In this document: positions 3,525 through 32,097 of the stretch, piece after piece | Numbering within the stretch: the first letter of the stretch is position 1 | Layout of the letters: every line of letters starts with the position of its first letter | IMG/VR virus record: IMGVR_UViG_3300049020_000031 | Location: 32,001-96,000 of that record | Length of the DNA: 64,000 nt | Source of the DNA: a virus | Reading direction: 5' to 3' (one strand) | The notes under the pieces: generated by a model | Databases searched by the model: none | What the model saw: the letters and a program-made list of their open reading frames with translations, nothing else | Told to the model about the DNA's origin: nothing | Program-made: the position numbers and the translations under genes

Positions 3525-4862
3525 TCAACGTTTTTTCATTTGCTGTTCTGCCACACCGAACGCCGTATAGTCAAACTTTAGATCGACAGCTTGTTTTGAA
3601 TCAAGAGCATTTGTGACATCATAGATGAATCTAGATCTCATGGTGAGCATCAGGGAGTTGAGTTCGATTTCTTTAAATTCTGGCTCATGGGTCATCACAA
3701 CCAACAGATCACTATCGACCACACTGTCGTAAGGGTCGAAATATTCGATGCCACGACTATGGGTCATTTGAGCACCATTGGGATCGTAGTATCGAACTTC
3801 AAAATTTCTAGATGAAAACCATTGAGCAACTTTCATTGATGGTGACTCTCTGGTATCGGCAGAACCAGCTTTGAATCCCATCCCCCAGAAGGTAATGGTT
3901 TTGCCCTTGTTTCCGTTCTTCTCCAGAATCCGTTTCACTTCACTAATTATGTGATGTGCGGCATTGTTGTTGCTTGAAACTATTTGATTCACCATACTCT
4001 CATGCATTGCATTGTTGGCGATTTGTGACCCAAGGGCATGTACATCCTTGGGTAGACAATAACCACCAAAACCAGGACCATGTTTCAAATATTGATCTCC
4101 GATTCGTGGATCAATGGAAATTCCAGTCACGACATCACGAATGTCAGCATCGTAGTTTTCACACAGTTGTGCCAACTCATTCACCATAGCGATACGAGCT
4201 GCTAAAAAGGTGTTCGCAGCCAGCTTGGTTATGACAGCGGAATTGAAACTCATGGGGATGATTGGTGCCCCATTTGCCAGCACCTCGATGACATCGACTA
4301 CATGGGGTTCAAGTGAGTCAAGGGTGCTGGTGGTGGTCCCTACCACCAGCCTATGGGGATGGTTAGCATCATGTAGTGCCTTACCTTCCTGAAAGAATTC
4401 CGGGAGTACCACTAGGCTGGCGAATGTTTTCTCAGGCTCCTTTAGGATATTCTGAATCGTATCCACGGCCATGGTAGAACGAACGAATACATAATGTGGG
4501 GAAATTTCTGTTTCCTTGAGGCCATACCTACAGCTATTGAATACGGATGAGATGGCATAAGAATCAAGATGTGTGCGGACTGACTGTGGTGTACCAACAC
4601 AGATGAACACCAACATACTCTCGTCCATTTCTTCAGGCCAGAAATTATTTTTGTGATCTCTACAGATCTCCAGAGACCCGTCAGAGATAAGTTCTGAAAC
4701 CGCCTCCTTGACTCCAGGCTCATCGATGTGGCAGTCACCATTCAAGAGTTTGCTGATGACCGTTTTGTTCGTGTCAAACCCGATGACTTTGTATCCAGAT
4801 TTGGCGAGGGTGATAGCGGTCGCCAATCCTGAATAACCCAGACCAAACACAGCCGCTCTCAT
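3525..4862 (-). CDS. ugd: UDP-glucose/GDP-mannose 6-dehydrogenase
   Basis: GLGYSG Rossmann motif, ICVGTP, PEFFQEG, KLAANTFLA, catalytic GGYCLPKD, DTRESP. Confidence 0.9.
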   Translation of the reverse strand: MRAAVFGLGYSGLATAITLAKSGYKVIGFDTNKTVISKLLNGDCHIDEPGVKEAVSELISDGSLEICRDHKNNFWPEEMDESMLVFICVGTPQSVRTHLDSYAISSVFNSCRYGLKETEISPHYVFVRSTMAVDTIQNILKEPEKTFASLVVLPEFFQEGKALHDANHPHRLVVGTTTSTLDSLEPHVVDVIEVLANGAPIIPMSFNSAVITKLAANTFLAARIAMVNELAQLCENYDADIRDVVTGISIDPRIGDQYLKHGPGFGGYCLPKDVHALGSQIANNAMHESMVNQIVSSNNNAAHHIISEVKRILEKNGNKGKTITFWGMGFKAGSADTRESPSMKVAQWFSSRNFEVRYYDPNGAQMTHSRGIEYFDPYDSVVDSDLLVVMTHEPEFKEIELNSLMLTMRSRFIYDVTNALDSKQAVDLKFDYTAFGVAEQQMKKR

Positions 4863-5812
4863 TTATGATAGTCCTTATACCATTCCACGAAATTTTTCAA
4901 ACCTTCCGCCATCGAAGTTGTCTTGCAATAGCCGATTCTGGATTGTAACTTATCAACAGACGATCTGGTGATGGAAGATTCATATACTGGCAAATCTATT
5001 TCAATAATTTCTGGTTTCTTTCCCAGTATTTCACCAATCGTCATGATCATCGACTCGACGGAAATAGATCTGCCAGATCCCAGATTGTAGATTTCGTGCG
5101 TACCGGGAACTGCCTTATCCAAGATACCAACTACCATATCAACCAGATCATCCACATATGTGAAGTCCCGTCTAGTCATTATACCACGGAGTAGAACTGG
5201 CTTGTCTTCCATGATAGCCTTGGTGAATAGCCAATATGCCATATCAGGTCGCCCCCATGGTCCGTATGCTGTGAAAAACCGCATACCTACCATAGTCCCA
5301 CCATAACTTTGGTGATGCATGTCGGCCTGTTGTTCGTTCGTGAGTTTACTCAAAGCGTAATTGCTACTGGGGAAAGTTTGATCATGTTCTTTTACTGAGC
5401 TGGTACCCGCACCGTAAACACTTGAGCTACTGGCGTAGAAGATTCTTTCTACGCCATATTTCTGGCAGGCGTCAAGTACCGCTGCCGTCCCCACGACGTT
5501 TGTTTTATACGTTCTGGCTGGATCAACCATTGATGCCGTAACTCCAGGTTGAGCGGCTAGGTGAATTACGGTCTTGATATCGTTTTCCGAAAACAACCTA
5601 TTGAGGTAATCCTGATTCGTGATGTCAGCGTAGAAGAATTTTACCTTACCACCGGTCATCAAAGAATTGAGACGATCTCGTTTTAGCTGCGGTGCGTAAT
5701 AGTTGTTCAAACTATCGACAAGAACCAGGTCCTCACCCATTGCTAGAAGTCGCTCCGAGACTGCTCTACCGATGAAACCTGCCGCCCCAGTGATTAGAAT
5801 TTTACCGTTCAT
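4859..5812 (-). CDS. NAD-dependent epimerase, UDP-glucuronate 4-epimerase-like
   Basis: TGAAGFIG, HLAAQ, YASSSSVYG, YxxxK, RFFTAYGPWGRPDMA, RDFTYVDD. Confidence 0.88.
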   Translation of the reverse strand: MNGKILITGAAGFIGRAVSERLLAMGEDLVLVDSLNNYYAPQLKRDRLNSLMTGGKVKFFYADITNQDYLNRLFSENDIKTVIHLAAQPGVTASMVDPARTYKTNVVGTAAVLDACQKYGVERIFYASSSSVYGAGTSSVKEHDQTFPSSNYALSKLTNEQQADMHHQSYGGTMVGMRFFTAYGPWGRPDMAYWLFTKAIMEDKPVLLRGIMTRRDFTYVDDLVDMVVGILDKAVPGTHEIYNLGSGRSISVESMIMTIGEILGKKPEIIEIDLPVYESSITRSSVDKLQSRIGYCKTTSMAEGLKNFVEWYKDYHK

Positions 5813-5933
5813 TTTTATGCCATTAGTTACCTGGAATTGTACGTTTGGCGTCAATAAATCACAATAAACATCAGATATACCGGTTTAATCTTCGAGGAAA
5901 CTCCCGTAAATAAAGGAAACTTCATCGGGGATT

Positions 5934-7245: not shown

Positions 7246-7605
7246 TCAATCTAATGATCCATTACCACCAAACATCAACTTAAACTTGATGGCATCTGAG
7301 GAATCCAGAAACCATATAGTCTTCGTCACATCAAGTCGAGTATTGGTGGTGTGGGAGTACCATCTGATGATTTTGAATGGTTGACATTCACTTAGGAAAA
7401 CTAACACGTCCTCGGAAAAATCAATGATCATCATCAATTCTTTCAACGAATAAGTTCGTATCCAGGTGATAGTTTTTGGAGGGAGTTCACTCCAATCACC
7501 GTTGAAATTGAACTTGTTCTCTTCAGTGATGTGAACGCATGATGCGCCAACCAGTTGTGGGCGAATAAGGAAAAGAACTTCTTTGCAGATACGAATAATA
7601 TTCAT
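7246..7605 (-). CDS. FKL-motif family protein, probably leaderless
   Basis: WFLDSSDAIKFKLMF; TG-C-TATCAT-6nt-ATG. Confidence 0.65.
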   Translation of the reverse strand: MNIIRICKEVLFLIRPQLVGASCVHITEENKFNFNGDWSELPPKTITWIRTYSLKELMMIIDFSEDVLVFLSECQPFKIIRWYSHTTNTRLDVTKTIWFLDSSDAIKFKLMFGGNGSLD

Positions 7606-7635
7606 ATGTGCATGATAGCACCATTCCAAATAGGA

Positions 7636-7790
7636 GAGCCCCTAATGGCGTTAGGGGCTCAACGTAGCCTTCACAAAAGAGGGGGTAGCTGTCCCTCTTT
7701 GTCTCGCGTGCTACCGCGAGTTTGACACCTGCATCGCTATAACATAACGGTCCTAAGGTGAAACTTTTTGGTTATTGCTAACCTTCAATC
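7636..7790 (-). ncRNA. candidate structured small RNA (three hairpins, possible kissing loop, terminal hairpin)
   Basis: no listed ORF; TAAATA at 7791-7796 on the minus strand; stems 7726-7760, 7703-7720, 7673-7702 and 7636-7660. Confidence 0.6.
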
Positions 7791-7796
7791 TATTTA

Positions 7797-8213
7797 TTAT
7801 CCAATGTAGGTAATCTTGTCATAAACCGGCCCCTTGTCGTCACCACTGAATGCCAATTTGAAACAGATCAGATCATGCATTGAGATGAAATACAATGGAT
7901 AGACAATTGCGAAGCAATCCCTTGCGTGGCCGGATATCTTAATTTCTTCAGAGGACGAAGGCTTGACATCATACTGTTTTCCCATCTCATATCCCTGACA
8001 AGACTCAAGGAAATCATGTATTTCTGGTTTCCATCCATACTCCAATCCATATTCCAAATTCATACCGTTATGATATGAATTGAAAACTCGGTTGCCATTC
8101 TGATAATTGATGTAGTCGTGTTGATAGATGGGATAAAGATGACCAAACACTCTGGGAAGAAGGCGAAACAACCGTAGATGAATAGCTGCCTTGATCTCTA
8201 GGAATGTTTTCAT
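7797..8213 (-). CDS. FKL-motif family protein, probably leaderless
   Basis: YFISMHDLICFKLAF; TG-C-TATCAT-7nt-ATG. Confidence 0.65.
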   Translation of the reverse strand: MKTFLEIKAAIHLRLFRLLPRVFGHLYPIYQHDYINYQNGNRVFNSYHNGMNLEYGLEYGWKPEIHDFLESCQGYEMGKQYDVKPSSSEEIKISGHARDCFAIVYPLYFISMHDLICFKLAFSGDDKGPVYDKITYIG

Positions 8214-30804: not shown

Positions 30805-30930
30805 TGTTGTTCTTATAAAATGGAATGGCAATATGGAAGTCATGATACTAATGGCAAAACATATTTGCAAAATAGGTTTACTTTTTATTCAAATGAACAT
30901 ATAATGGAGTTAATGAAACACGGAGCTAAC

Positions 30931-32097
30931 ATGCACACTACGATTCTCAATCAGGACCTCATGACGTTGCGACAAGCCTTTCTGGATGCTGGTCGGGACA
31001 TCCGTTTGGTTGGTGGTGTAGTTCGTGACCTTATCATGGGGCAAACACCCAAGGACATCGACCTTTGCACTGATGCAACTCCAGACGAACAGCATGCGAT
31101 CTACATGAATGCTGGTTTGCAGTACGTTGACACTGGCATTGATCACGGCACTATCACGGTGGTGATGAATGGTGAAGGTTACGAAATCACCAGCTTGCGC
31201 ACTGAAAGCCAACATGATGGCCGTCATGCTGTGGTGGCGTTTACTCGTGATTGGACGGAAGACTTGAGTCGTCGTGACCTCACAATCAATGCAATTTCAA
31301 TGACGTTTGATGGTGAAATCCATGATCCTTTTGGTGGTGTCCAGGATATCGAGAACAATGTTGTTCGATTCGTGGGTAATCCACAGGAACGTATGACCGA
31401 AGACTACTTGCGCATCATGCGTTACTTCCGATTCCTTGGTCGTATGGCCGGTGAACGTGATGAAGACTATGACCGCTATCTTGATATCAAGATCGATCCA
31501 GTGACTGTTAATGCAATCTACCAGTGTGTTGATGGATTGGCCGGAGTCAGTGCTGAGCGTATCTGGGTGGAATTGAAGAAGATCGTTGCTCACCCATCAG
31601 CATTTGTTGTTTTGACACACATGAAGCGTTTGGGAGTGTTTTCTCCTGCTCGTATCCCATACAGCTTGGACCCCGATGAAGTTCATGATGCTGGTGTGGG
31701 TGTTGGCATCAACGACCCAATCGTGATCTTGGCTTCATGCTTGGATAAGAGCGCGGTACGTAAAATCAGCACGGACTTGAAGTGGAGTTCCGAAGAAGTG
31801 AAGTGGGCTTTGGAATTCCAACGCATGCGGGAACACACTGCGGAAGACTTGTTCCGCGAAGTCATCCTGAATGGTACTCGGACGGATCATGCTTCGAAGG
31901 TGGCTCGCTTGAATGGATACCACTATGTCGCGACGTTGTTGACACAACCATTGCCCGTATGCCCGGTCAATGGGGCGACGTTGGCAGCTCGTGGTATGAA
32001 GCCTGGTCCAGAGATGGGCAAGGCCTTGCGAGATGTCAAGGTTCGTTGGTATGAATCAGGATGCTCGATGACTGCTGAGGACTTGATGAATGGTTGA
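30931..32097 (+). CDS. cca: class II tRNA nucleotidyltransferase (CCA-adding enzyme)
   Basis: LVGGVVRD, DIDL, DLSRRDLTINA, DPFGG, EDYLRIMRYFRF, ERIWVEL. Confidence 0.9.
   Translation: MHTTILNQDLMTLRQAFLDAGRDIRLVGGVVRDLIMGQTPKDIDLCTDATPDEQHAIYMNAGLQYVDTGIDHGTITVVMNGEGYEITSLRTESQHDGRHAVVAFTRDWTEDLSRRDLTINAISMTFDGEIHDPFGGVQDIENNVVRFVGNPQERMTEDYLRIMRYFRFLGRMAGERDEDYDRYLDIKIDPVTVNAIYQCVDGLAGVSAERIWVELKKIVAHPSAFVVLTHMKRLGVFSPARIPYSLDPDEVHDAGVGVGINDPIVILASCLDKSAVRKISTDLKWSSEEVKWALEFQRMREHTAEDLFREVILNGTRTDHASKVARLNGYHYVATLLTQPLPVCPVNGATLAARGMKPGPEMGKALRDVKVRWYESGCSMTAEDLMNG

Follow-up and report, generated by a model that had tools for sequence, protein, structure and literature searches.

Genomic context of the RNA locus

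The 64-kb stretch of DNA analyzed here (the window) comes from an IMG/VR virus record of 141.5 kb with an estimated completeness of 33% (CheckV), and the sole sequencing run found to contain it is a soil metagenome (DNA). Among the genes in the window are those for T4-type topoisomerase II subunits and for a tRNA nucleotidyltransferase (CCA-adding enzyme; 30820-32097, plus strand), yet no tRNA or tmRNA gene was detected in the 64 kb by ARAGORN; in the preliminary description, the RNA locus could not be matched to tRNA or tmRNA by eye. The large topoisomerase subunit is most similar to those of Sinorhizobium phage Phosso (469 kb; 60% identity) and Agrobacterium phage Atu_ph07 (490 kb; 55% identity), followed by RaK2-like jumbo phages, so the host is probably a soil bacterium, perhaps a member of the Rhizobiales.

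The RNA locus (7636-7796, minus strand) lies between two ORFs that are encoded on the same strand as the RNA. The two flanking proteins had no IMG/VR relatives in a pattern search and belonged to no PHROG or Pfam family. Adjacent genes for a UDP-glucose dehydrogenase and an NAD-dependent nucleotide-sugar epimerase (sugar-nucleotide metabolism) are located nearby (3525-5854, minus strand). The gap had been described as having no listed ORF; the minus strand has no ORF of ≥30 amino acids between 7630 and 7796, and on the plus strand a 56-amino-acid ORF (7555-7725) overlaps the RNA region. The features of the locus are listed below.

7791-7796, minus strand: TAAATA box, a candidate T4-type late promoter element (from sequence), abutting the TAA stop codon (7799-7797) of the ORF at 7797-8213
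7770-7783, minus strand: small 5′ hairpin GGUUA-GCAA-UAACC (RNAfold minimum free energy and centroid structures), outside the family consensus and missing in relatives
7726-7760, minus strand: P1 helix formed by CACCU (7760-7756) and AGGUG (7730-7726), surrounding E1 and P2 (RNAfold)
7744-7759, minus strand: E1, ACCUUAGGACCGUUAU, containing the family-invariant core CCUUAGGACC; 16/16 Watson-Crick complement of Escherichia coli 23S rRNA 1916-1931 (rrlH)
7735-7749, minus strand: P2 hairpin CGUUAU-GUU-AUAGCG, nested in P1 (sequence and RNAfold)
7703-7720, minus strand: P3 hairpin CUCGCG-GUAGCA-CGCGAG (RNAfold), whose loop GUAGC (7714-7710) is a pseudoknot strand
7673-7702, minus strand: P4 hairpin ACAAAGAGGG-ACAGCUACC-CCCUCUUUUGU, whose loop holds E3, GCUACC (7689-7684) (sequence and RNAfold)
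7664-7668, minus strand: tail GCUAC, pairing with the P3 loop in the pseudoknot (family alignment)
7636-7660, minus strand: terminal 10-bp hairpin GAGCCCCUAA-CGCCA-UUAGGGGCUC, followed by UCCUAUUUGG (terminator scan and fold), outside the family consensus

Predicted fold and transcript ends

All of the hairpins, the TAAATA box, the second GCUAC, and the terminal stem named in the preliminary description are present on the minus strand at 7636-7796. This strand folds at -54.7 kcal/mol (RNAfold), compared with -40.5 ± 4.0 kcal/mol for 200 dinucleotide shuffles (z = -3.6), none of which was as stable. The RNAfold structure consists of the four hairpins noted previously plus the small one at 7783-7770. 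The first of the four (i.e., P1 with its contents) encloses UAGGAC together with the inner hairpin CGUUAU-GUU-AUAGCG (7749-7735); in this fold, UAGGAC is the only part of E1 that is unpaired.

The locus would specify a folded RNA of roughly 150 nt on the strand of its flanking genes, arising either by read-through from the upstream gene or by initiation at the TAAATA box. A simple terminator scan flagged the terminal hairpin (7660-7636), whose tail, UCCUAUUUGG, has a weak U tract. This hairpin is probably the 3′ end of the RNA, as judged from the prediction of termination; hairpins 1 to 3 failed the scan for rho-independent terminators on the minus strand.

The TAAATA box had been proposed to be a late promoter. 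In this genome, no motif is more enriched upstream of genes than TAAATA, which occurs 29 times within 70 nt upstream of predicted genes, where 2.8 occurrences are expected (i.e., an approximately 10-fold enrichment), and ATAAATA is the most enriched 7-mer upstream of genes. The sequence at 7798-7791, AATAAATA, was compared with the T4-type late promoter box TATAAATA. The enrichment suggests that T4-like late promoters are used in this Atu_ph07/Phosso-like jumbo phage, and it makes an RNA-specific promoter at the box plausible. The position of the box is unlike that of most others: of the 36 noncoding TAAATA boxes, 28 are located 5 to 70 nt before a same-strand start codon, whereas the box at the RNA is 161 nt from the next one, with the RNA in between. 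The genome-wide form of the box is often (G/C)(T/A)(A/G)TAAATA, with examples in the window at 2048, 5907, 10854, 15267, and 17323.

A family of phage-encoded RNAs

An 18-mer, CACCTTAGGACCGTTATG, was present in two unrelated IMG/VR contigs, and a 14-mer from the window copy, TTAGGACCGTTATG, was present in 82 IMG/VR loci. In approximately one-third of these 82 loci, a second element was located 25 to 45 nt downstream, namely, a hairpin with the loop (A/G)UUCGCUAC; the remaining loci were coding or chance matches. We defined a two-block family pattern on this basis (TTAGGACCG, a gap of 24 to 54 nt, and TTCGCTAC), which retrieved at least 120 IMG/VR loci, with 83 distinct sequences and no 23S rRNA genes among the matches listed. 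Fifty-one sequences including the window copy were aligned (alignment A1); a second alignment (A2) and a covariance model (R1) comprised the 50 sequences other than the window copy.

The model recovered the locus as its sole match, both in the 64-kb window (7685-7768, minus strand; 19.1 bits; E value of 0.0075) and in the whole 141.5-kb record (E value of 0.016), although these E values are rough; the element is single copy in the record. The model aligned well to the 5′ half of the window copy and poorly to its 3′ half because in the window copy the P3 loop differs from that of the family, the P4 stem is longer, and E3 is shortened (ACAGCUACC). Each architectural element of the family alignment could nonetheless be matched by eye. 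The core CCUUAGGACC is found in the window copy at 7758-7749 (minus strand), and its columns are invariant in 51/51 sequences of A1. In the P4 loop, ACAGCUACC, GCUACC (complementary to 23S 1929-1934) is retained and the UUCG part of the family loop, AUUCGCUAC(C), is substituted. By model and alignment, the window copy is a divergent member of the family, and the structured RNA recognized in the preliminary description is borne out by a fold that fits a covarying family and by a model that finds the locus without having included it.

Two sub-types were distinguished. The complex sub-type comprises the closing helix P1, P2 (which is optional), P3 with a GGCUGCU loop, P4 with a AUUCGCUAC loop, and the tail AAAGUGAGCA. 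The simple sub-type is found in AT-rich phages, and its P4 also serves as a terminator; a U run follows P4 in the AT-rich members. Four copies of the simple sub-type (L009, L023, L026, and L074) are in or beside phage tRNA clusters on the same strand. The L026 element directly follows a tRNA-Glu gene.

The family was not found in existing catalogs. BLAST searches of GenBank phages returned no match for the locus or for two relatives. In Rfam 15, nothing reached the gathering score in the window and nothing reached an E value of ≤10 on the RNA stretch; at the element in relatives, nothing was found at the gathering score (11 relatives) or at an E value of ≤1 (8 relatives). A literature search that included the motif sequences returned only rRNA primers and I-CeuI sites, with no description of the family. 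A two-block scan of 185,579 bacterial and archaeal species genomes matched almost exclusively true 23S rRNA genes in antisense orientation, in which TCGCTAC occurs by chance in the region of helix 68; the element therefore appears to be absent from bacterial chromosomes. The sole plausible true instance in prokaryotic genomes was on a 3.7-kb contig of a Verrucomicrobiia metagenome-assembled genome (MAG) (L121; 2908-2955, plus strand), which may be a misbinned phage fragment. A metagenome scan for variants resembling the window copy (CCTTAGGACCG...AGCTACC) yielded only chance or coding matches and 23S rRNA genes, and no close relative. Taken together, the RNA family is large, phage restricted, uncatalogued in Rfam, and pseudoknotted (see below).

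The copies are surrounded by varied phage genes, which contradicts an assembly or contamination artifact, and no neighboring gene shared across sub-families was found. The element was absent from Phosso, Atu_ph07, RaK2, BF17, and T4 (the sole pattern match, in Phosso, was inside a coding sequence). Since the nearest cultured relatives lack it, the element is not essential to this phage lineage.

Position and strand of the family copies

A same-strand ORF ends ≤60 nt upstream in 67/84 instances, compared with 7 instances of an opposite-strand ORF, and this bias indicates that the RNA strand is the one antisense to 23S rRNA. A stop codon is located 5 to 14 nt before UUAGGACC in 42/84 instances and never closer than 5 nt, with a family median of 12 nt. 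The preliminary description had taken the RNA to be stand-alone; because family copies usually start 5 to 14 nt past a same-strand stop codon, the element behaves as a 3′ untranslated region (3′ UTR) element and may not be stand-alone. In the window copy, the stop codon is 40 nt upstream, and the gap holds the TAAATA box and the small extra hairpin. In several relatives (e.g., L002, L155, L164, and L199), the RNA tail GAGCAUAAAUA overlaps such a box that belongs to the next gene.

Covariation and a conserved pseudoknot

When the proposed structure was evaluated on A2 (50 sequences), 88% of the cells were paired, compared with 66% for shuffled sequences and 26 to 44% when the partners were slid, and 213 cells carried changes on both sides of a pair. 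P3 was 100% paired, with many double changes, and P4 was 86 to 95% paired, with compensatory changes. The P2 stem covaries among the relatives, with a loop consensus of U-N-G-U-U. The equivalent of P1 is a closing helix of the form (A)CACC/GGUG(U) or CUC/GAG, for which only 56% of the cells were paired, its columns having been poorly aligned by MAFFT. RNAalifold agreed with the proposed family structure.

In 51/51 aligned sequences, an H-type pseudoknot is formed between the P3 loop and the tail that immediately follows P4. Five compensatory classes support it: GCU(G)C:GAGC (the commonest), GGU(G)C:GACC, GCCAC:GUGGC, GCUAC:GUAGC, and, in the window copy, GUAGC:GCUAC. The last of these joins GUAGC (7714-7710) to GCUAC (7668-7664) at the same aligned position as in the relatives, and in L157 and L229 the pair is strand swapped relative to the window copy (GCUAC:GUAGC). 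The preliminary description had proposed that the hairpin 2 loop (i.e., the P3 loop) takes part in a kissing loop or pseudoknot, and its GGUAGC is indeed exactly complementary both to GCUACC in the hairpin 3 loop (P4) and to the downstream GCUAC. Of these two partners, the downstream GCUAC is the one supported by the family alignment, since 50/50 aligned relatives pair there with compensatory changes; the kiss with the hairpin 3 loop drew no support from relatives. That GGUAGC/GCUACC interaction (6 bp) is possible in the window copy alone, where it would mask the P4 loop.

E3 is predicted to be mostly unpaired and E1 to be only partly open. Mean unpaired probabilities in the family were 0.72 for E3, 0.50 for E1, and 0.42 for the rest, and the values for the window copy were 0.99 for E3 and 0.56 for E1. 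No conserved alternative helix was seen in the family, whose structure consists of fixed helices plus the pseudoknot.

Several candidate functional classes were considered and rejected. A riboswitch or attenuator was set aside given the lack of an Rfam aptamer and of conserved mutually exclusive helices. Neither Rfam nor the order of the arms supported a mimic of the tRNA T loop or D loop, C/D or H/ACA guides, a hammerhead, or an RNase P guide, nor the preQ1-I, wcaG, and manA motifs. A mini-ORF, with UUAGGACCGUUAUG as a Shine-Dalgarno sequence followed by AUG, was rejected as well, because frames and peptides differ among relatives.

Complementarity to helices 69 and 70 of 23S rRNA

What appears decisive for the interpretation went unseen in the preliminary description: the conserved bases are antisense to helices 69 and 70 of 23S rRNA. 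The family-invariant CCUUAGGACC is the Watson-Crick complement of 23S 1921-1930 (E. coli rrlH), and the second family block, UUCGCUAC, is the complement of 23S 1930-1937, which abuts the first segment. In the window copy, ACCUUAGGACCGUUAU (7759-7744) complements 23S 1916-1931 at 16/16 positions. Because GUUA (7743-7740) further complements 1911-1914, the E1 match continues beyond this stretch, with U1915 skipped. The GCUACC of its P4 loop (7689-7684) complements 1929-1934, a match of 6 nt that is shorter than the AUUCGCUAC(C) of the family. GGUAGC in P3 (7715-7710; the closing stem G plus the loop) is identical to 23S 1929-1934 in the sense orientation. The 23S rRNA genes of Acidobacteriota, Chloroflexia, Cytophagales, Myxococcota, Bacilli, Shigella, and others all share an identical target sequence.

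The 16-mer match is not by itself significant on the genome scale, since shuffled genomes give matches of 14 to 17 nt to the rrn operon, and the case therefore rests on conservation in the family. RNAduplex comparisons of the RNA with whole 16S and 23S rRNAs were likewise uninformative: shuffled sequences scored equally, and long imperfect duplexes dominated. From (2 × 4566/4^10) × (7/4^8), we estimate a probability of approximately 10^-6 for two independently conserved blocks being complementary to abutting rRNA segments by chance.

These data bear on one alternative, namely, that the hairpins in this intergenic gap are ordinary ones stacked at the end of a transcript (terminators or 3′ stabilizers) and that the 23S match is coincidental. 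The terminator-like terminal hairpin, the U run after P4 in AT-rich members, and a 16-nt rrn operon match that is within chance for a 141-kb genome would all be accommodated by it. We consider it very improbable, given that over 80 distinct sequences, on contigs unrelated to one another, carry two separately invariant blocks whose 23S complements abut, and that terminators neither conserve their loop sequences nor form a covarying pseudoknot.

Extensions of the complementarity beyond the invariant blocks are lineage specific and differ in direction, yet they always follow the 23S sequence. In L015 and L078, the extension GUUACGGCC is the complement of 23S 1906-1914, and L048 carries near-complete complements of 23S 1906-1928. 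Other extensions are UAGUU (UNGUU) in P2 loops and ACC, UUAU, and GUUA in the window copy. Within the P2 loop motif, conservation is lowest at the base opposite position 1915 (A in 20, U in 8, and C in 5 of 33 sequences). In E. coli, 23S 1915 is an m3-pseudouridine, which is unable to form a Watson-Crick pair. Variability opposite this modified base would fit pairing with rRNA, but the argument is only suggestive, given the small sample of related sequences.

The 23S rRNA genes of four Acidobacteriota MAGs (L102, L104, L112, and L127) and of an Acidimicrobiales MAG (L143) break right after the equivalent of E. coli U1931, with the antisense reading ...aacc|TTAGGACC at the break. This looks like an intron or another insertion, at a known rDNA intron site beside the I-CeuI target.

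Possible modes of action

The phage RNA probably pairs with the large-subunit rRNA of the host. Such pairing, with 23S rRNA that is either nascent or part of a free 50S subunit, is in our assessment the most likely mode of action, and we hold it with modest confidence on the strength of the sequence comparisons described above. The scaffold of P1, P2, P3 (with its loop-tail pseudoknot), and P4 would display the invariant segments complementary to 23S 1911-1937, a target that runs from the helix 69 loop and the 3′ strand of that helix across the junction into helix 70, of which it covers the 5′ strand and the loop. A partner of the conserved blocks would bear GGUCCUAAGG...GUAGCGAA. First contact could be made through exposed loops, the P2 loop on the helix 69 loop and the P4 loop on 1929-1937, after which E1 would extend the duplex, in a kiss-then-extend manner as in plasmid antisense RNAs. 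Pairing would start at the solvent-exposed helix 69 loop of the free 50S subunit or on nascent rRNA.

This geometry has its difficulties. Most of 1920-1937 is base paired within helices 69 and 70 in the mature 50S subunit, so pairing would require either strand invasion or a target that is not folded. In the family, G1930 is claimed by E1 as well as by E3 (1929-1931 in the window copy); the two arms therefore cannot both pair fully on one target. Moreover, the arms are permuted in order relative to a simple antisense RNA.

We tentatively put forward a more specific scenario, which we consider quite possible: large phages encode a dedicated RNA that pairs with the helix 69-70 core, with rRNA as its direct target. 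Such an RNA could hold on to 50S subunits that are free or newly released, or it could prevent subunit joining or the late steps of 50S assembly, and the window copy may be self-masked by its target-mimicking GGUAGC loop.

The placement of many copies just past stop codons raises another reading, in which the element works exclusively in cis and its target is the ribosome terminating at the stop codon upstream of it. P1 would melt, and the freed E1 would capture or hold the just-released 50S subunit, affecting recycling or re-initiation on the next gene; this would be a bacterial analogue of the calicivirus termination upstream ribosome-binding site (TURBS) and a special case of rRNA pairing rather than the action of a diffusible small RNA. 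The stop codon spacing before UUAGGACC (42/84 within 5 to 14 nt, with a minimum of 5 nt) is in keeping with it, as are the same-strand ORFs that start ≤150 nt downstream in 61/84 instances and the location of the P1 5′ strand within the approximately 9 nt covered by a terminating ribosome. We nevertheless judge an exclusively cis-acting role to be unlikely. Tight spacing past stop codons is common in compact phage genomes, some copies (L023 and L026) are inside tRNA clusters far from ORFs, and in the window copy the stop codon is separated from the element by 40 nt, in which a promoter-like box and an additional hairpin are located. Pairing with helix 69 would also disable bridge B2a, which is needed for subunit joining, and a positive role in re-initiation is therefore hard to picture.

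The same geometric difficulties could instead point to a partner other than rRNA, such as the sense strand of host rDNA (as an R-loop or nuclease guide), a base-recognizing protein, or a tertiary or ligand pocket (riboswitch-like). Conserved unpaired bases in a pseudoknotted scaffold are typical of RNAs that bind ligands or proteins, and neither the permuted arms nor the overlap at G1930 fits easily with a plain duplex on a single rRNA strand. A partner of this kind seems improbable to us, inasmuch as no neighboring protein gene is conserved across sub-families and the lineage-specific extensions track the 23S sequence, which a protein or ligand pocket would not require. The rDNA variant is inseparable here from rRNA pairing because an RNA complementary to rRNA equally complements the sense strand of rDNA.

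Comparison with known systems

Pairing with rRNA, as we propose it, would give the phage RNA several parallels among characterized RNAs. Like CopA/CopT of plasmid R1, RNA I/RNA II of ColE1, and trans-acting or 3′-UTR-derived small RNAs, it has a short fold with complementary bases exposed in loops or single strands, often followed by a terminator hairpin and often originating from the 3′ end of a coding transcript. It differs from them in its presumed target, which is helix 69-70 of the functional core of rRNA rather than an mRNA or a replication primer, and in its permuted arms, the conserved pseudoknot of its scaffold, and its occurrence in many unrelated phages, a distribution that would follow from a universal target.

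The TURBS of caliciviruses and influenza B virus are also viral segments that are complementary to a conserved rRNA loop and are located by a stop codon between two cistrons. They are short linear motifs upstream of the stop codon that match 18S small-subunit rRNA, whereas the phage RNA is downstream of the stop codon, matches large-subunit rRNA, and is pseudoknotted, and some of its copies adjoin no ORF. The EBS1/EBS2-IBS1/IBS2 interactions of group II introns resemble the phage RNA in having two guides, one of them in a terminal loop, that address adjacent targets in the same permuted order (i.e., the 5′ guide on the 5′ part of the target). Unlike group II introns, the phage RNA has no intron architecture, catalytic domains, or ORF, is only approximately 100 to 150 nt long, and has longer arms (10 to 16 nt and 6 to 9 nt).

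The T4 RNAs rnaC and rnaD (species 1 and 2) are small RNAs without an assigned function that are encoded by tRNA genes, and one sub-type of the family is also found in tRNA clusters. The 5′ hairpin of rnaD, ACCGG-GUCGCUA-CCGGU, carries GUCGCUACC (UCGCUACC), the complement of 23S 1929-1936. T4 has neither CCUUAGGACC nor the combination UUAGGACC...GCUAC, and it gave no match to the family model; the resemblance, limited to one 8-nt loop, may be due to chance. In the T4 genome (L092), rnaD is located at 5054-5172 and rnaC at 4909-5047 (both on the minus strand), and rnaC contains GAGUAGCG twice, complementary to the rnaD loop.

Possible implications for phage-host interactions

Helix 69 forms a central intersubunit bridge and contacts tRNAs as well as release and recycling factors. 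To our knowledge, supported by a literature search, natural RNAs that base pair with helix 69 as their target have not been described for bacteria or bacterial viruses. The sequence comparisons would fit a trans-acting inhibitor of subunit joining or assembly, a cis-acting posttermination device, or an rDNA-directed role. The only invariant bases of the family complement helices 69 and 70, in many unrelated large phages, and this would point to a new viral action on translation. If this interpretation is true, the ribosome's own RNA would be the direct target of a viral noncoding RNA, which would offer a natural lead for the antisense inhibition of ribosomes. The family would also add to the catalog of phage noncoding RNAs a sizeable group with a covariation-supported pseudoknot.
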